64,000 bases of DNA from an uncultured cyanobacterium (GTDB lineage Bacteria; Cyanobacteriota; Cyanobacteriia; Pseudanabaenales; Pseudanabaenaceae), in assembly GCA_963703315.1 (NCBI GenBank), contig OY969811.1, positions 4,224,001 to 4,288,000 on the forward strand, given 5' to 3'. The translations under genes were made by a program, and so were the position numbers. Each line of letters opens with the position of its first letter. Within the stretch, counting starts at the first letter, position 1. Of this stretch, positions 47,962-55,812 are shown in pieces. The notes beneath the pieces are model-generated. The model worked only from the letters and a program-made list of their open reading frames with translations. It searched no databases and was not told the origin of the DNA.

Positions 47962-50900
47962 ATGGTTGCTGAGATTTGTTTTGATGGTTATTTAAGGGCG
48001 ATTGTAAACACTCACCAAAAATGGCAGGAGTGGTATACGCCAACGGATGCGACAGGAAAGGATTCATCGCAAGTTGAGCGCGATCGCCCTGCTTTTTTTG
48101 ATTTTGGTTTGATGGTGCAGACGGTAGAGCCGCCAAAGGCTGAGCAGGAAAGAGAATTAGAGCAGGATCGCGAAAAGAAGGAAAAAATCGAGCGGTTGCC
48201 TGTGTTGGAGGGGATTTGTAAGTATGCGGCGGATCATGTGTTGCTGGTGGGTAGACCAGGATCGGGGAAGTCTACGGCTTTGGCGCGGTTGTTGTTGCAG
48301 GAGGCGGAAAATGCGTTAAAGGATCAGCAAGCGAAAATTCCTGTGTTGGTGGAGTTGCGGTATTTGCCCTCGGAGGCGAATGAGTCGTCTGTATGCGATC
48401 GCATTCTTGCCTTTATGCACAAACACGATCCTGCTTTGGATATTGATGAGGCGGGGATTAAGCAGCTATTGCGTCAGGGGCGGTTGTTGCTGTTAGTGGA
48501 TGGGGTGAATGAGTTGCCATCGGATCGCGGTCGCGTCATGGTAAATCAATTTCGGGAGCTTTATCAAAAAACTTGCCCAATGATCTTTACGACGCGGGAG
48601 TTGAGTGCGGGTGGGGATTTGGGGATTACCAAGCGGTTAGAGATGCAGCCTTTGACGGAGCCTCAGATGCAGCAGTTTGTGATGGCGTATTTGCCGACGC
48701 AGGGAGAGAGGTTGTTGCGGCAGTTGTCGGGAAGGTTGCGAGAGTTTGGGCAAACGCCTTTGTTGTTATGGATGCTTTGTTCGTTGTTTCAGCAGTCTGA
48801 GCAGATTCCACCAAATTTAGGTATGGTGTTTCGGGCCTTTACGGTGGGCTATGGGGACAGGATTAAGCAGAATGTGACGCTATCGAAGGATTCGCGGGCA
48901 TGGTGGGGGCGGTTGTTGCAGTATCTAGCGTTTAAGATGACCTGTGGCGAAAGTCTGACGGAATTGCAGGTGGCAATTTCGCGGCGGAAGGCGGAGCAGT
49001 TTTTGGTGGAGTTTCTGCGGGGGAAGGTGGAGTTTGCGGACGATCTTGCGGTGCGGTGGTTGGAGGATTTGCTGAAGCATCATTTGATTCAGATTAGCAA
49101 TGACCGCATTGAGTTTCGGCATCAGTTAATTCAGGAATATTATGCGGCGGAGTGGTTGTTGGGACTGTTGCCGAGTCCGAGTTTGAGTGATGCGCGGTTA
49201 CGGCAGGGCTATCTTAATTATTTGAAATGGACGGAACCTTTGGCGTTGATGTTGGAGTTGGTGGAGAGTGAGGAGCAGGCGGTGCGGGTGGTGAGGCTGG
49301 CGCTGGAGGTGGATTTGCGGTTGGGGGCGAGGTTGGCTGGGGCGGTGAAGTATGGGTTTCAGGAGAAGACAGTTGGGTTGTTGTTGAGGGAAATAGAAGA
49401 ACAGAAAATTCCGAAGTTATATGCGATCGAACTTTTTGGGGAAACGGGATCTAATGTTTCTATTACTACTCTAACTCAATCTCTTAAAGATGAAGATTCT
49501 GATGTACGTGAAAATGCTGCAAAAGCATTAGGTCAGATAGCTAGTGACAAAGCGGTCGAAGAACTTATTCAAGCCCTTAATGATACTAGTTCTTGTGTAA
49601 GTGGCAATGCAGCAGAAGCCTTAGGTCGGATTGGTAGTGACAAAGCAGTTGAGCCTCTTATTCAATCTCTTAAAGACACGAATCTTACTGTTGGTAGGAA
49701 TGCAGCAGAAGCCTTAGGTCGGATTGGTAGTGACAAAGCAGTTGAGCCTCTCATTAAAGCCCTCAAAGATACACCTTATACAGATTCTGAAGTACGTAGG
49801 AATGTAAAAAAGGCATTAGGTAAGATTAGTAGCGATAAGTCAGTCAAATCACTTATTCAAGCTCTCAAAGACAAAGATTTTTATGTGCGTTGGGATGCAA
49901 CAGAAGCATTAGGTCAGATAGACTGTGACAAAGCAGTTGAGCCTCTCATTCAAGCTCTTCAAGATACAGATTCTGAGGTACGTGAAAATGTAGCAAAAGC
50001 ATTAGGTCAGATAGGTAGTGGCAAAGCAGTTGAGTCTCTCATTCAAGCTCTTCAAGATACAGATCCTAATGTGCGTAAAAATGCAACAGAAGCATTAGGT
50101 CGGATTGGTAGTGACAAAGCAGTTGAGCCTCTCATTCAAGCTCTTCAAGATACAGATTCTAATGTGCGTAAAAATGCAACAGAAGCATTAGGTCAGATTG
50201 GCAGTGACAAAGCAGTTGAGCCTCTCATTCAAGCTCTTCAAAATACGAGTTTTACTGTTGGTAGGAATGCAGCAAAAGCATTAGGTCGGATTGGCAGTGA
50301 TAAGGCAGTTGAGCCTCTCATTCAAGCTCTTCAAAATACAAAAGTGCATGAAAAGGCAGCAAAGGCATTAGGTCAGATAGGTGGTGATAAAACAGTTGAT
50401 CTTCTCATCCAAGTTCTTCAGGATACAAATTATAAAATGCGTTATTGTGTAGCACAAGTATTAGGTCAGATTGGCAGTTACAAAGCAGTTGAGCCTCTCA
50501 TTCAAGCTCTTCAAGATACAGATTTTTTTGTGCGTTGGAATGCAACAGAAGCATTAGGTCAGATTGGCGATGACAAAGCAGTTGAGCCTCTCATTCAAGC
50601 CCTTCAAGATACAAATTATAAAATGCGTTATTATGTAGCAAAAGCATTAGGTCAGATTGGCAGTGATAAAGCAGTTGAGCCTCTCATTCAAGCTCTTCAA
50701 GATAAATATTTTGATGTGCGTATGTTTGCAGCAGAAGCATTAGGTCAGATTGGCAGCGATAAAGCAGTTGAGCCTCTCATTCAAGCTCTTCAAGATAAAT
50801 ATGTTGATGTATCTATGTTTGCAGCAGAAGCATTAGGGGAAATCAATATTAGTGGAAAGATTAGCATCGTGTCTTTTGCATTACTAGAAGTATTAGAAAA

Positions 50901-51321
50901 TAATAACGAGTTATTATGTACGCCAGCGATTAAAGCTTTGGGTAAAATAGGTGGAGAAATGGCAGTTCGAGGACTAATACCATTACTACAAGATAGCGAT
51001 TTCTTAGTGAGGCAATCTGCTCGCGAATCTCTAAGCAAAATTGCCTCTCCTAAGACTATTAGTTACCTCTACAAGCTAATTCCAACAACCTACGGGCTTA
51101 ATGAAATTCACCTCGTAATCTCTAATATCCAAGCCCGATGTAAATACTACAACTACGACATAGCCCAAACACCCTTACCCCCCGAAGATAACCCCAACCC
51201 CACCACAGGCAACACCTACATCTTCAACAAAGAAGTAGGACAAGTAGTTGGTGGAAATCTAATAGTTCAGGGTGATAATATTGCCACACAAAACAACCAA
51301 AAGACAGCACCTGAATCCTAA
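47962..51321 (+). CDS. NACHT NTPase + HEAT-repeat (NLR-like) protein with C-terminal low-complexity motif
   Basis: GRPGSGKST Walker A, LLLVDGVNE Walker B, FTTR, TPLLL, FRHQLIQEYYAA; about 17 HEAT repeats. Confidence 0.9.
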   Translation: MVAEICFDGYLRAIVNTHQKWQEWYTPTDATGKDSSQVERDRPAFFDFGLMVQTVEPPKAEQERELEQDREKKEKIERLPVLEGICKYAADHVLLVGRPGSGKSTALARLLLQEAENALKDQQAKIPVLVELRYLPSEANESSVCDRILAFMHKHDPALDIDEAGIKQLLRQGRLLLLVDGVNELPSDRGRVMVNQFRELYQKTCPMIFTTRELSAGGDLGITKRLEMQPLTEPQMQQFVMAYLPTQGERLLRQLSGRLREFGQTPLLLWMLCSLFQQSEQIPPNLGMVFRAFTVGYGDRIKQNVTLSKDSRAWWGRLLQYLAFKMTCGESLTELQVAISRRKAEQFLVEFLRGKVEFADDLAVRWLEDLLKHHLIQISNDRIEFRHQLIQEYYAAEWLLGLLPSPSLSDARLRQGYLNYLKWTEPLALMLELVESEEQAVRVVRLALEVDLRLGARLAGAVKYGFQEKTVGLLLREIEEQKIPKLYAIELFGETGSNVSITTLTQSLKDEDSDVRENAAKALGQIASDKAVEELIQALNDTSSCVSGNAAEALGRIGSDKAVEPLIQSLKDTNLTVGRNAAEALGRIGSDKAVEPLIKALKDTPYTDSEVRRNVKKALGKISSDKSVKSLIQALKDKDFYVRWDATEALGQIDCDKAVEPLIQALQDTDSEVRENVAKALGQIGSGKAVESLIQALQDTDPNVRKNATEALGRIGSDKAVEPLIQALQDTDSNVRKNATEALGQIGSDKAVEPLIQALQNTSFTVGRNAAKALGRIGSDKAVEPLIQALQNTKVHEKAAKALGQIGGDKTVDLLIQVLQDTNYKMRYCVAQVLGQIGSYKAVEPLIQALQDTDFFVRWNATEALGQIGDDKAVEPLIQALQDTNYKMRYYVAKALGQIGSDKAVEPLIQALQDKYFDVRMFAAEALGQIGSDKAVEPLIQALQDKYVDVSMFAAEALGEINISGKISIVSFALLEVLENNNELLCTPAIKALGKIGGEMAVRGLIPLLQDSDFLVRQSARESLSKIASPKTISYLYKLIPTTYGLNEIHLVISNIQARCKYYNYDIAQTPLPPEDNPNPTTGNTYIFNKEVGQVVGGNLIVQGDNIATQNNQKTAPES
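49462..51057 (+). repeat. Array of 93-nt HEAT-repeat units (15 well conserved + 2 degenerate)
   Basis: GACAAAGCAGTTGAGCCTCTCATTCAAGCTCTTCAAGAT...GCATTAGGTCAGATTGG recurring; VEPLIQALQD-x-VR-x-A-EALGQIGSDKA. Confidence 0.9.
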
Positions 51322-51353
51322 CCAACCACTAAACATTACCCAGTGAGAAAAAC

Positions 51354-51728
51354 ATGACCTTTAACTTCCACGCCCCCGTAGGACAAGTCATCGCAGGCGA
51401 TCAAACCGTCACAGGCGACAACATCGGCACACAAAACAACTACTACGGCACAGACGACCCCAACACACAACAACTAGCCAACGAACTAGTTGAAATCCTG
51501 CAAGGAATCGTCCCCCAAATCTCCGATCCCACCAGCGAAGCAGGCAAAGAAATCATCACCGCCGCCGCAATGGAAGAGATAGAAAACAAACCAACCCTTA
51601 AAGATCGTCTAGTTGCTGCATTTAAAGCAGGTGCATTTGAAGCCATCAAAAAAATTGCCAAAAATGACTTTGTGGAAGTCTTCCTTACCGCCTTCAAAGC
51701 AGGACTTGAAGCCAAACCTAAAAAGTGA
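51354..51728 (+). CDS. Small protein: N-terminal motif matching the NACHT C-terminus + helical domain (candidate effector)
   Basis: MTFNFHAPVGQVIAGDQTVTGDNIGTQNN followed by amphipathic helices (PTLKDRLVAAFKAGAFEAIKKI...FVEVFLTAFKAGL). Confidence 0.75.
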   Translation: MTFNFHAPVGQVIAGDQTVTGDNIGTQNNYYGTDDPNTQQLANELVEILQGIVPQISDPTSEAGKEIITAAAMEEIENKPTLKDRLVAAFKAGAFEAIKKIAKNDFVEVFLTAFKAGLEAKPKK

Positions 51729-51795: not shown

Positions 51796-52089
51796 ATGAA
51801 AACAGCAACCATCTCCCGCCATGTCACCCGCAACCCTGAAGTCCTCTCAGGCGAACCAATTATCGATGGAACCAGAACACCCGTTAGAGCGATCGTCGAA
51901 AATTGGCGCTTAGGAGTTAGACCAGAAGAAATTCCATTACATTTACCCCACCTCAATCTCGCGCAAATCTTTGATGCCCTTAGCTTTTACCTAGACAATC
52001 AAGCAGAAATCAACGAATACATCGAACGCAACCACGTTCCCGATGAGCTAGTACATCCACTTATCAAAGCTAGACTAAATCAAAGATGA
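51796..52089 (+). CDS. DUF433 family antitoxin
   Basis: RNPEVLSGEPIIDGTRTPVRAIV...LAQIFDALSFY. Confidence 0.88.
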   Translation: MKTATISRHVTRNPEVLSGEPIIDGTRTPVRAIVENWRLGVRPEEIPLHLPHLNLAQIFDALSFYLDNQAEINEYIERNHVPDELVHPLIKARLNQR

Positions 52090-52430
52090 CTATTTTTGCT
52101 CAAGTTTATATTGATGAAGATGTGGATATTCTAGTTGCCACCCTACTCATCGCTAGAGGATTGGACGCAACCACAGCAAGACAGCAGAGAACCTTAGGCG
52201 AACTCGATCCCCAACAACTAGCTTTTGCAGCATCAATGGGGCGTTGTATGCTGACCCACAACCGACTCGATTTTGAGAAACTACATACGAGTTATGTCTT
52301 GAATAACCAGACACACGCAGGAATCATAATCGCAAAACGGAGAAATCCCTATGAAATTGCCGAAAGGGTTGCCATGCTTCTTGATACCTTGACAGCCGAT
52401 GAAATTGCGAATCAATTGCTTTACATTTAA
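52086..52430 (+). CDS. DUF5615 (PIN/Mut7-C-like) toxin
   Basis: YIDEDV...D.QQLAFAA..GRCMLTHNRLDF...HAGIII; ATGA overlap with DUF433. Confidence 0.85.
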   Translation: MTIFAQVYIDEDVDILVATLLIARGLDATTARQQRTLGELDPQQLAFAASMGRCMLTHNRLDFEKLHTSYVLNNQTHAGIIIAKRRNPYEIAERVAMLLDTLTADEIANQLLYI

Positions 52431-52824: not shown

Positions 52825-53517
52825 ATGACAAATGCAGCCCAACTTCAAAACCTTCCAGCCTATACAGTAGCCGATGCCGCTCGTTACCTGCGGATTCCAT
52901 CGGGTACATTACAAGCTTGGCTACATGGGCGTACCTACAACACCAAAGACGGACAACAATTTTCCGCACCCCTCATCCAGCGCCCTAGCACCGAATTTTC
53001 ACAACTCTCATTTATCAACCTCGTAGAAGCCCATGTATTACGAGTGATTCGCCAAGACCACAATATCCGCCTAGACAAAGTTCGCACCGCCCTTGACTAC
53101 ATCGAACGTGAATTTGCTACCCCACATCCCCTCGCAAGCATCGACTTCCAGACCGATGGCGTAAACCTCTTTGTCGAATCTGTAGGAAAACTGATTAACG
53201 CCTCCGAAAATGGACAGTTAGCCATGCGTCAAACCCTTAACCAACTCCTCAAACGCATCGAATACGATCGCCAAGTTGCCATTCGCCTATTCCCCAACCT
53301 GCGCCCCAATCAATCTGATAGCCCAAAAATTCTCGTCTTCGATCCCGCCGTATCCTTTGGGCGTTTAGCGATCGCTGATACAGGCATTCCCACATCCATC
53401 GTTGTCGAACGCTATCGAGCAGGAGATTCAATCGATTTACTTGCTGAAGACTACGGCTGCACAAGACTCCAAATCGAAGAAGCGATCCGCTACGAACTCC
53501 CTCCTCAAATTGCGTGA
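52825..53517 (+). CDS. HTH + DUF433 antitoxin (VapB45-like)
   Basis: PAYTVADAARYLRIPSGTLQAW, LSFINLVEAHV, DPAVSFGR...GDSIDLLAEDY. Confidence 0.82.
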   Translation: MTNAAQLQNLPAYTVADAARYLRIPSGTLQAWLHGRTYNTKDGQQFSAPLIQRPSTEFSQLSFINLVEAHVLRVIRQDHNIRLDKVRTALDYIEREFATPHPLASIDFQTDGVNLFVESVGKLINASENGQLAMRQTLNQLLKRIEYDRQVAIRLFPNLRPNQSDSPKILVFDPAVSFGRLAIADTGIPTSIVVERYRAGDSIDLLAEDYGCTRLQIEEAIRYELPPQIA

Positions 53518-53957
53518 ACAAGAAAAATACCGATAAGCCGATCTTTTTTGTAGATAGAGCCTTAGGCAAAAATCTAGTCAAAATCTTACGGAACTCAGGC
53601 GCAAATGCCGAAGCGCATATCAAGCATTTTGCCCCCAATTCTCCAGATGTCGAATGGTTGCCCGAAGTCAGCCTCAGAGGATGGATTGTCTTGACTAAAG
53701 ATGCCAATCTGGGACGTACACCCTCTGAGCAAATAGCGATCGCCAGTTCTAATGCAAGAGTTTTTGTTTTAGCGATCGGTGATGCCAGTGGTGAAGAAAT
53801 GGCACAAACTTTTATTCAGGCTTTAGACAGCATCGAGAGATTCATCAAGGGAAATCAATCCCCTTTCATCGCAAAAGTTTATCAAAACAGCAGAGTTTCA
53901 ATCTGGCAAAACCACACAAAACTTTTGAAGATGCTACAACGATCTAATGAGTTGTAA
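53514..53957 (+). CDS. PIN-like toxin (VapC45-like)
   Basis: FFVDRALGK...SPDVEWLPEV..RGWIVLTKD; GTGA overlap with the antitoxin. Confidence 0.82.
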   Translation: MNKKNTDKPIFFVDRALGKNLVKILRNSGANAEAHIKHFAPNSPDVEWLPEVSLRGWIVLTKDANLGRTPSEQIAIASSNARVFVLAIGDASGEEMAQTFIQALDSIERFIKGNQSPFIAKVYQNSRVSIWQNHTKLLKMLQRSNEL

Positions 53958-54161: not shown

Positions 54162-54635
54162 CTACTTGGATCTTTGAGATCTGAGAAAGCCACTGATTGT
54201 TAGAAAAGTCTTGTTATTACCAAGAAACTCTTTCTTTTCGTCATCATCGACCGTACCCACAAGACTGTTAAACGCACCAATCGCAGCATTAAACTTATCT
54301 ATATCAATAGAAACTGAACCCTGTTGAATCGATGGTCTACCATTAGCATCAAGAGGAATTAAGGCGATGACTTGATCAACTAAGTTCGCTAATAGTTGTT
54401 CATTGATACCTGCACCTTTTAATGAATTAAGCACATTATCTCTAGAACCTAGTTCTATTAAAGCATTGAGTTCAGCTAGGGAAATGTTGAGTAGAGTAGT
54501 TTTGATAGAACCAGAACCAAAGGGACTATTAGATGTTGAGGTTCCGGGACTAATCGGAGTTGTCCCAGCCATAGCAGGTAAAACACTGCTAAAGCTAAGG
54601 AATGAGGCGAATACAACTGATAATGTCTTTCTCAT
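54162..54635 (-). CDS. Hypothetical secreted protein
   Basis: Signal peptide ending PAMA; IDKFNAAIGAFNSLV helix. Confidence 0.6.
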   Translation of the reverse strand: MRKTLSVVFASFLSFSSVLPAMAGTTPISPGTSTSNSPFGSGSIKTTLLNISLAELNALIELGSRDNVLNSLKGAGINEQLLANLVDQVIALIPLDANGRPSIQQGSVSIDIDKFNAAIGAFNSLVGTVDDDEKKEFLGNNKTFLTISGFLRSQRSK

Positions 54636-54702: not shown

Positions 54703-55812
54703 TTATCTGCGCCCAAGATAATTAAATCCATAGGTAACGCCTAAAATAACCTGAGTGCCAGCATCACTGTTGTTAGTGATATCGGAGTAGGTCAAATTAA
54801 TATTTAGTGGTAATGAGCGATCGGGTAGGAATCCAACAGAAAAATTGAGTCCTTGTCCAGACCAAGCAGTACTGACACCCCACTGTGGATCTACTAGATA
54901 GCCAAGACTGCCGAAAACACCTAAACCACCATTGCTGTCTGATCTGCGATAGGTTCCGCCACCGACACCAGCCGAAAAAATCAAAGGCTTAGGATTATCT
55001 TTATCTTCAGGATTGGTGATCCGTGAAAGTGTCGCCACTCCATAGACCGAGGATGGAGTACCACCTGCATTACTGCCATAGTTTGCGAAGTTTGTCCAAC
55101 CGACAGCAAGCCCAACTTGGTTCTCTGTATCTCCATAAATCACTTTATGAACCTTCAGATCGAACGAACCATTTTCGGCAAATCTACGGATACTGTTGAT
55201 GTTAAATACACCTTCAACTGCAAAATACTGATTTGCATCACCTAAACCAGTACCTAGAGAAATACTGCCATCAACATTATCTCTCAGTCTACCTGCGGTT
55301 GCTCCAAAAACACCGATAAACCCATCACCAGTTTCTAAACCAAATCCACTAGGTGTCCCTGCATTTAATCCAGGAAGGTATGAAGGCTTAACAGAAATCG
55401 GTGTGATCTTCAGAAATGGCGAAATAGATGTGGGTGACGCTTGAGTGAGTCTGATATTGTTTTGAGCAGATTCCATTAGATCACTGTTGGGCTGAGCAGA
55501 AATCGTAATAGAAGAACTAGTCTTAAAGTCGAGATGAGAAGGAGCTTTCAGATCCTTTGCAGAATCAGGAAGTCTATTACTTAGAGGGGGTTTGGTAGTA
55601 TTCTTTGCCGTGCTTTTAGCAGTGCTGGTATTAGAACCCTTCTTATTTGGCATTTGGGTATTGCCAGATTGTTTGGTAGTAGAGTTGACTACCTTTTTAT
55701 TAGTAATTTTGGGCTGTGCGGAGACATTGTTTTGAGCGATCGCGCTCATGCCAATGATTGCTCCTGCAAAGGTCAGCATCAATTTATTGATTGTCAAGAT
55801 TCCCTTCGACAT
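54703..55812 (-). CDS. Hypothetical outer-membrane beta-barrel-like protein
   Basis: Signal peptide, disordered linker, Gly/aromatic-rich beta strands, C-terminal GVTYGFNY. Confidence 0.6.
   Translation of the reverse strand: MSKGILTINKLMLTFAGAIIGMSAIAQNNVSAQPKITNKKVVNSTTKQSGNTQMPNKKGSNTSTAKSTAKNTTKPPLSNRLPDSAKDLKAPSHLDFKTSSSITISAQPNSDLMESAQNNIRLTQASPTSISPFLKITPISVKPSYLPGLNAGTPSGFGLETGDGFIGVFGATAGRLRDNVDGSISLGTGLGDANQYFAVEGVFNINSIRRFAENGSFDLKVHKVIYGDTENQVGLAVGWTNFANYGSNAGGTPSSVYGVATLSRITNPEDKDNPKPLIFSAGVGGGTYRRSDSNGGLGVFGSLGYLVDPQWGVSTAWSGQGLNFSVGFLPDRSLPLNINLTYSDITNNSDAGTQVILGVTYGFNYLGRR

Follow-up and report, generated by a model that had tools for sequence, protein, structure and literature searches.

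Why do a large sensor protein and the product of the small gene behind it carry matching segments of 28 residues, and why at opposite ends of the two polypeptides? The question is raised by a two-gene locus of an uncultured cyanobacterium of the family Pseudanabaenaceae, located at positions 47,962 to 51,728 of a 64,000-nucleotide stretch of DNA (the window; positions 4,224,001 to 4,288,000 of the forward strand of contig OY969811.1, GenBank assembly GCA_963703315.1). The genome of the window, referred to below as its own genome, is a single contig of 4.57 Mb. The sensor, a NACHT-HEAT protein, is called P0001 and the small protein P0002; L-numbers denote loci and other P-numbers homologues. 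The answer that we favour, and to which we give about even chances, is that the matched segments are tags by which the helical module of the small protein would be attached non-covalently to the sensor.

The sensor, the small protein and their shared tag

The locus consists of the following elements:

47962..51321, plus strand: gene for the NACHT-HEAT signal transduction ATPase with numerous domains (STAND NTPase) P0001, 1119 aa (open reading frame, ORF; Pfam NACHT and HEAT_2)
48235..48696, plus strand: NACHT domain, residues 92-245, with Walker A GRPGSGKST (Pfam and sequence)
49429..51168, plus strand: HEAT array and capping helix, ending in the conserved IQARCKYYNY (Pfam and library matches from about residue 490; AlphaFold2)
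51169..51213, plus strand: Pro-rich flexible linker (sequence; predicted local distance difference test score, pLDDT, below 50 from model residue 131 on)
51214..51297, plus strand: sensor tail tag, 28 aa, residues 1085-1112 of 1119 (sequence)
51322..51353, no strand: intergenic spacer, 32 nt (sequence)
51354..51728, plus strand: small gene for P0002, 124 aa, tag and helical module (ORF; 34 homologues)
51357..51440, plus strand: leader tag of P0002, residues 2-29 (sequence)
51459..51710, plus strand: five-helix bundle, P0002 residues 36-119 (AlphaFold2 and profile search)

P0001 belongs to the NACHT clade of STAND NTPases, as its NACHT domain scores above the Pfam cut-off (2.2e-15; 57.3 bits against 26.7), contains Walker A and is followed by an array of many HEAT repeats (HEAT_2, 1.1e-177), the cap residues of which are invariant in the Pseudanabaena and Nostoc homologues. 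No Pfam family was found in its first 90 residues, in line with the statement of the preliminary description that the sensor has no recognizable N-terminal effector. At the other end, the Pro-rich linker leads into the tag TYIFNKEVGQVVGGNLIVQGDNIATQNN, which is followed by QKTAPES and the stop codon; the small protein starts M-TFNFHAPVGQVIAGDQTVTGDNIGTQNN. The two tags are identical at 16 of 28 positions, which is the best ungapped 28-residue match between both whole proteins and was reached neither by 100 shuffles of the small protein nor by 20,000 shuffles of the motif's own composition (maximum 11 in each case). At the DNA level 55 of the 84 positions agree, and 7 of the 16 identical residues are specified by different codons. 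The shared motif reported earlier is therefore real, at the positions given above, and its codons do differ. The core of the leader tag, GDNIGTQNNY, is invariant among P0002 homologues; six-frame translation of the own genome revealed the tag core only in the sensor tail, in P0002 and in L002, a COR-containing protein of 970 aa.

A helical domain was proposed to follow the motif in the small protein, and AlphaFold2 (53-row alignment) indeed predicts five helices at residues 36-119 of P0002, with pLDDT of about 85-90; residues 1-34, including the tag, are unstructured in this model (about 40). When the last 181 residues of the sensor were modelled (50776-51318; 14 homologues), the HEAT repeats and the capping helix were folded up to model residue 130 (pLDDT 85-94), and the linker and tail were unstructured (35-46). 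Both copies of the tag are thus predicted to be free, flexible and disordered ends, which argues against either of them being integral to a folded domain. The invariant tag core lies, according to the sequence and the model, 6-8 residues before helix 1 of the bundle. Prediction of a complex between sensor residues 1045-1119 and P0002 returned a score of 0.00 and no answer, and is evidence neither way.

Here, then, a short motif is shared by adjacent collinear genes, one of which encodes an NTPase of the NOD-like receptor (NLR) type, as in amyloid signalling pairs. In the passages of the literature considered here, the NLR bears the amyloid signalling motif at its N-terminus, and the helical effector bears it at its C-terminus (Dyrka et al., preprint; Ibarlosa et al.; PMC12261475; PMC13506858). 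The motif of the present locus occupies residues 1085-1112 of the 1119 of the sensor and residues 2-29 of the partner, and the inverted polarity pointed out in the preliminary description therefore stands, as measured against the published pairs in those passages.

One explanation, which we regard as unlikely, is that the tags act as genuine amyloid signalling motifs: on activation of the sensor, its tail would nucleate a cross-beta fold and template the leader of P0002, and the bundle would become a membrane-damaging or lethal effector, as in NWD2/HET-S with the polarity reversed. Short matched motifs rich in G, N, Q, V and I in adjacent genes are the signature that was used to find HET-s and BASS (bacterial amyloid signalling sequence) pairs, both tags are disordered in the monomer models, and folding of a tag whose core is so close to helix 1 could strain the bundle. 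Moreover, Pfam finds no other candidate effector domain in the sensor, and IGTQNN or IGTQIN occurs in a few Bell C-termini of a BASS data set, as far as a string look-up can tell. However, no hydrophobic terminal helix is evident in the sequence of the bundle. Of the earlier proposal that the helical domain is an effector, the domain itself is supported by the model, but neither Pfam nor the fold search detected a likeness to the Bell or HeLo type, these being weak negatives.

A C-terminal module and its tagged neighbours in cyanobacteria

P0002 is a free-standing copy of a module of roughly 125 residues that occupies protein C-termini and has no Pfam family. Its profile, built from 12 units, matched 1,708 cluster representatives among 1.84 billion, 1,012 of them at E<=1e-10. 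With two exceptions (P0041 and P0134), the match ended at most 15 residues from the C-terminus in the 150 matches listed (148/150), of which 40 were proteins of up to 160 aa. In a phylum-wide sample the module was present in 23 of 121 genomes, and in a class-wide sample in 179 of 401 cyanobacterial genomes and 83 of 167 genera. Among 112 longer matches, 105 were scanned for fusion partners (the last seven were left out): 16 carry HEAT/NACHT, 19 Roc/COR and 17 pentapeptide repeats; caspase (Peptidase_C14), TIR with TRADD-N, a DpnII-type nuclease (REase), alpha/beta hydrolase, dynamin, Clp_N, HTH, DUF4926, DUF6887, DUF2283 and others occur singly; and in about 38 the partner part has no family. 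No Pfam family covers the module itself, either in these 105 fusion proteins or in 53 module sequences. Across the family the bundle is well conserved; the preceding segment is variable in both length and sequence but always rich in G, N, Q and D and in beta-branched residues.

Three more proteins of the own genome end in the same bundle, namely a 329-aa AbiTii protein, a 230-aa DUF4926 immunity-type protein and the COR-containing GTPase-type L002, whose 1141-aa homologue L020 scans as LRR-Roc-COR. Since the bundle is carried by sensors, by effectors (caspase, TIR, nuclease) and by an immunity protein, the role of an adaptor fits it better than that of a dedicated death effector; its fusion to already existing effectors speaks against the amyloid explanation as well.

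Searches for known relatives of the bundle gave little. Scans of P0002 yielded nothing above the cut-offs in Pfam, NCBIfam or PADLOC, and a lenient Pfam scan of 53 module sequences (E<=5) revealed no EAD and no TCAD, only scattered sub-threshold matches, the commonest being PEP-utilisers_N and DUF4404 (each in 7 of the 53). Foldseek found no match to the P0002 model in PDB at E<=0.001, and the best hits of VIA-align wide (Z 5.7) were generic helical rows such as TetR C-domains; neither search was informative. TCAD2, placed at rank 26 with a score of 0.88 by the protein atlas, was not borne out by the lenient Pfam scan; the atlas otherwise returned only unnamed cyanobacterial clusters.

Effector-associated domains (EADs; EAD1-11 and bacterial death-like domains, bDLDs) offer an analogy to such a distribution. 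In the cited parts of the work by Kaur, Burroughs, Iyer and Aravind, they are small, helical, non-catalytic domains of conflict systems in multicellular bacteria; a single genome carries them both on NTPase cores and on effectors or signalling proteins, which they are proposed to couple by homotypic contacts (PMC7159879, PMC8195603). The present module is likewise distributed, within its own genome, over NTPase cores as well as effector or signalling proteins, and shares with EADs the partners caspase, TIR, TRADD-N, EAD7, Roc-COR and NACHT; in L032 the same type of tag precedes EAD9, a recognized adaptor domain. On the other hand, the module is always C-terminal, whereas EADs are mostly N-terminal on the NTPase, and it is preceded by a tag that is duplicated on the neighbouring protein. 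Two further differences weigh against tag-mediated coupling: P0002 matches no EAD model, nor does any of the 53 module sequences at E<=5, and module paralogues of one genome are not closer to each other, P0002 being 27-30% identical to those of its own genome as compared to 33-35% for the Nostoc copies.

At a distance of about 25 kb from the Pseudanabaena minima copy of the locus, L032:5199-8797 contains a caspase frame, a frame change, the tag and EAD9, and the next gene encodes an EAD9-nSTAND1-FGE-sulfatase protein.

A second structural analogy is provided by the pentapeptide beta-helix. The leader continues from pentapeptide repeats in part of the family (17 of the 105 partners; the leader in L004), one database names a P0002 homologue a pentapeptide repeat protein, and a solenoid would result if short repeat units contributed by several chains were stacked. 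Unlike such repeats, however, P0002 and the sensor tail are not matched by the pentapeptide models of Pfam, and the 28-residue tag is too short to fold alone and is predicted to be disordered.

We collected, from the phylum and class genome samples, 60 places where the module is part of a short open frame of at most about 260 aa, together with 3-3.5 kb of upstream DNA. The bundle was placed with a hidden Markov model (HMM) of the helical domain, and up to 100 residues before it were compared with the last 60 residues of upstream ORFs of at least 80 aa on the same strand. A match was scored when at least 45 BLOSUM62 units were reached over 18 aa; in cross-locus comparisons the 95th percentile was 26 and the 99th 58, the latter being so high because loci of one motif family match one another. 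L038 and L059, present in the input, were missed by the HMM and were assessed by hand. A matching upstream tail was found in 23 of the 54 usable loci, including the window; the number of independent cases is lower, as L040, L042 and L044 are orthologous. The upstream partner is an LRR-Roc-COR protein in L057, L060, L063, L064, L068, L072 and L090, NACHT-HEAT in L093 and L097, HEAT in L055 and L059, a DUF6232 protein with two predicted membrane helices in L040, L053 and L098, and a pentapeptide protein in L094.

The tags are unlike between these partner groups and agree within a locus. For 21 matched loci the mean score within a locus was 66.0, as compared to 35.0 between loci, a difference reached by none of 5,000 permutations. 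The expectation of paired motifs in homologous adjacent genes has therefore been borne out in many cyanobacteria. As to co-variation, the absence of which the preliminary description named as a ground for refutation, the motifs are matched at the level of the motif family, whereas single loci within a family or within Pseudanabaena show no such matching.

Some of these pairs deserve a separate mention. The DUF6232 proteins of L040, L042, L044, L053 and L098 (L043 being weaker) are about 200 aa long with two predicted membrane helices, and their C-terminal tag, quite unlike the NACHT and Roc-COR types, matches the leader of an adjacent stand-alone module protein. In L052:2956-3861 the stand-alone module gene is followed by a NACHT gene, and the N-terminus of the NACHT protein is rich in G, N and Q and loosely resembles the module leader, a layout nearer to the published polarity on the sensor side. 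The own genome has a second tag pair in L038 (G000:C1:246248-249532, minus strand, outside the window), where a COR protein ending in a G/D-rich tag is followed by DUF6883 and by a protein composed of DUF4926, tag and module, the tag of which agrees with the COR tail in 12 of 18 residues. The COR frame measures 321 aa from stop to stop, against at least 815 aa in L057, and may be truncated. This second type of tag was found only in the COR/DUF4926 pair in the six-frame translation of the own genome.

The same order, a Roc-COR protein with its tail, DUF6883 and DUF4926-tag-bundle, characterizes the Roc-COR loci including L038. A 2026 preprint, in the part considered here, describes DUF6883 as BECR RNase toxins and DUF4926 as their likely immunity partner. 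The gene order suggests that the sensor could capture the antidote by means of the tag. It is possible, if doubtful in our opinion, that the tags represent a new and large class of reversed-polarity motifs of the cross-beta (solenoid-stacking) type. Tags on NACHT and Roc-COR sensors and on small membrane proteins would then capture module-bearing proteins, and the Roc-COR tag would capture the DUF4926 immunity partner, freeing the DUF6883 toxin. Activation of such a sensor would sequester the antidote, which would amount to a templated, aggregation-driven toxin-antitoxin trigger.

Split and fused genes and the selection acting on them

The architecture that is divided between two genes in the window exists elsewhere in one piece. 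In 11 Nostoc loci a single ORF encodes a large protein in which the same capping segment is followed by a linker, a single tag and the bundle, and the three that were scanned (L024, L027 and L030) are NACHT-HEAT proteins. The closely related P0039 and the NACHT-HEAT protein of 1161 aa in L013/L099 have a shortened tail that runs into P0002-like sequence with its own Met and leader, and their fused bundle is nearly identical to P0002. A variant module is fused in Tumidithrix L015 and in P0188, and both tag copies stand in tandem in the single ORF of the metagenome locus L109. These fused homologues make the window pair the two-gene form of one architecture, and the retained Met and leader suggest that fusion occurred from a split ancestor, by deletion between the repeats. 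HET-s contains two pseudo-repeats, which the tandem tags of L109 echo, a point in favour of true amyloid signalling motifs; yet the fused forms retain the tag although no templating between chains is needed in them, which speaks against that explanation.

For this type of sensor the split form dominates. In ten of the 16 genome loci counted (the window and L005-L019), an intact small gene is immediately preceded by a sensor with the tail. Two others (L013, L015) encode a fused sensor and, farther along, a separate small gene, in two the sensor has been replaced and half of the tag is gone (L016, L017), one is frame-broken (L019) and one is without upstream DNA (L008). The 24 metagenome loci comprise six split pairs, one tandem fusion, five with other genes upstream, two with a truncated form, and ten that are too short, partial or otherwise unplaced; they were returned by a metagenome search aimed at a divergent small protein of the P0027 type, and all 24 proved to be of the P0002 type or partial. 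Among the 31 sensor homologues retrieved with the last 120 residues as query, 27 have the tail alone, two the fused bundle and two are partial. A Prochloron assembly (L022) contains the sensor, a tail displaced into another frame, and a small gene that is truncated.

Where the sensor has been lost (L016, L017, L117 and L118), ORFs of 315 and 609 aa have taken its place, and the junction lies inside the tag of the small gene, leaving only the invariant core; a 95-aa remnant of the sensor N-terminus remains in L016.

Joining of the two ORFs by programmed frameshifting or read-through was considered and rejected: in loci of the L005 type the upstream stop of the small frame lies 3' of the sensor stop, and the overlap varies among loci. 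RNA contigs of relatives from three metatranscriptome runs extend over the sensor end, the spacer and the small gene (X4, 51127-51717; X1, 51280-51535; X3, 51144-51368), which is weak evidence of a joint transcript, since the libraries can contain DNA, a contig is not a transcript, and the run shares are small (0.13-0.21).

Within Pseudanabaena, both tag copies and the small gene are under purifying selection, the tail more loosely. The median ratio of nonsynonymous to synonymous substitution rates (dN/dS) of the small gene is 0.13 (78 pairs, 13 loci). The corresponding pN/pS is 0.07-0.12 for the leader tag (0.07 when pooled, 13 loci) and 0.16 for the rest of the gene, and the tail tag has a value of 0.39 in the ten loci with both genes. 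The match appears to be selected and does not look like a fresh duplication, as was supposed from the codon differences.

These figures bear upon the possibility that the pair is a relic of gene fission, that is, a fused gene broken by local duplication and a stop codon, with leftovers that have no joint function. The fused forms in close and distant relatives would agree with such an origin, as would the faster evolution of the tail and the deletion it carries, described below, and the broken copies in some assemblies (the frame changes of L019 and L022). However, a dN/dS of 0.13 for the small gene, taken together with a tail present in 27 of 31 homologues, is not what a decaying relic would exhibit, and the pN/pS of 0.39 points the same way for the tail itself; neither the relaxed selection nor the patchy retention of a non-functional split gene was found. 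The split form is kept across many Pseudanabaena genomes, with a frame-broken pair also in Prochloron, the layout with two tags recurs in independent protein classes, and the internal start Met and leader of the fused relatives suggest that the split state is the older one. The relic explanation is largely refuted by the selection figures, and we consider it very improbable. The warning in the preliminary description that one fused ORF in close relatives might betray a split-gene or duplication relic was justified as far as the fusions are concerned, but selection on both pieces opposes the conclusion. We take the fusions as support for coupling and not as its refutation; they do demonstrate that a covalent, constitutive linkage is tolerated. 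Recombination of orphan cassettes, as in polymorphic toxin loci, was considered as a possible analogy, and it would leave the purifying selection on tail-only sensors unexplained.

In addition to the two differences from EADs mentioned above, several observations weigh against coupling through the tags. At the protein level the tail evolves about ten times faster than the leader in the same loci (pN 0.110 versus 0.010), and in several loci the tail copy lacks one residue and has Arg in place of the Gly of GDNI. The small gene is kept without an adjacent tail-bearing sensor in L013, L015, L104, L106, L115 and L116, and with half of its tag replaced in L016, L017, L117 and L118; no matching upstream tail was found in 31 of the 54 usable short-module loci. 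Locus-level co-variation was not detected in Pseudanabaena, where tail and leader of one locus share 16.9 of 28 residues, exactly the mean between loci, a test of low power because the leader hardly varies. Nor is there locus-level matching inside families: for nine Roc-COR pairs the scores were 69.8 within and 68.2 between loci, and 1,047 of 5,000 permutations reached the observed value.

The lack of locus-level matching also counts against amyloid templating, and it could be expected if the tags served only for self-association or spacing in the assemblies of each protein, for instance by stacking of tails in a sensor oligomer. The tags would then be shared by descent from a fused gene, and P0002 would not be bound by the sensor through them. 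Each side does keep a signature of its own, ATQNN in the sensor tails and GTQNN in the small proteins, with a similar division in the Roc-COR pairs, and the survival of small genes without an adjacent tail-bearing sensor is also in agreement with independent roles. What self-association leaves unexplained is that Roc-COR, NACHT-HEAT, DUF6232 and pentapeptide tails share the motif family of the adjacent module gene (none of 5,000 permutations), and that 27 of 31 homologues have retained the tail, at the end of a long flexible tether. We therefore find self-association quite unlikely to be the whole function of the tags.

As to the surroundings of the locus, two toxin-antitoxin-like pairs, DUF433/DUF5615 and HTH_66-DUF433/PIN_10, lie directly 3' of the small gene (51796-52430 and 52825-53957 of the window). 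Similar small pairs are found between the sensor and module genes in L013, L055 (ParE_toxin) and L104. Further on, two ORFs on the minus strand (54162-54635, 157 aa, and 54703-55812, 369 aa) have starts resembling signal peptides and no Pfam family.

Proposed tag-mediated coupling and its significance

The explanation that we favour, coupling through the tags, joins these observations in the following way. Fused relatives are a classic sign of joint action, suggesting that the sensor and the small product work together, and, as the tag is the only element common to both products, it is likely to be the coupling device. Sensor, flexible tag and helical module would constitute one architecture, here separated into two genes. 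The segments are predicted to be disordered and are prone to form strands, which makes beta co-assembly the most plausible mode of pairing; the two tag copies would pair by beta-strand co-assembly and may stack into a short beta-solenoid. Such pairing would recruit the helical module to the sensor without a covalent link, oligomerization of the NACHT domain would cluster the tails with the modules bound to them, and the bundle would then act as an adaptor-like output. Hence the two-gene signalling system of inverted polarity envisaged in the preliminary description is supported in part, by the motif, its conservation and selection, the polarity and the fusions; it is weakened by the lack of a detectable Bell/HeLo likeness of the bundle and of locus-level co-variation.

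Comparison with NWD2/HET-S indicates how far the parallel extends. In both systems an NLR-type NTPase and the product of the adjacent gene share a motif of about 20-30 residues with G, N, Q and alternating hydrophobic residues, and fused and two-gene forms coexist among relatives. In the descriptions of NWD2/HET-S considered here, however, the motif stands at the N-terminus of the NLR and at the C-terminus of a HeLo-type killer, whereas in the window this order is reversed and the sensor copy lies beyond the repeat array; moreover, no HeLo likeness was detected in the bundle, and the fused forms of the present architecture keep the tag. With the BASS pairs (Bell/NLR, BASS1-10; Bab/Agp, BASS11), as far as the cited parts describe them, it shares the bacterial host, adjacent collinear genes with short gaps and matched motifs. 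In the same parts of these sources BASS pairs are enriched in filamentous cyanobacteria and actinobacteria (Dyrka et al.; Ibarlosa et al.). It differs from them in that its partners include Roc-COR GTPases and DUF6232 membrane proteins, the likeness to BASS having been assessed by string look-up. Full-text literature searches, which did not cover bioRxiv supplements, brought to light no account of a sensor whose C-terminal tag is matched by a tag at the N-terminus of a helical module, nor of the module itself. The finding may thus be seen as a variant of motif-coupled NLR signalling together with an apparently undescribed, widespread module.

For the cyanobacteria, these results point to a widespread wiring of immune-type sensors to their outputs, in which one copy of a tag is placed at the C-terminus of the sensor and the other at the front of a detachable helical module. 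If the tags are amyloid-like, the principle of amyloid signalling would extend to the opposite polarity, to Roc-COR GTPases and to a toxin-immunity pair. In the part considered here, the published bacterial motif screen searched only N-terminal positions on NLRs and C-terminal positions on effectors (Dyrka et al., preprint). As only the N-termini of NLRs were examined, such screens would in that case be blind to a large share of these systems. If the tags are plain docking strands, they would still constitute a compact natural device for coupling proteins, available in several orthogonal families.

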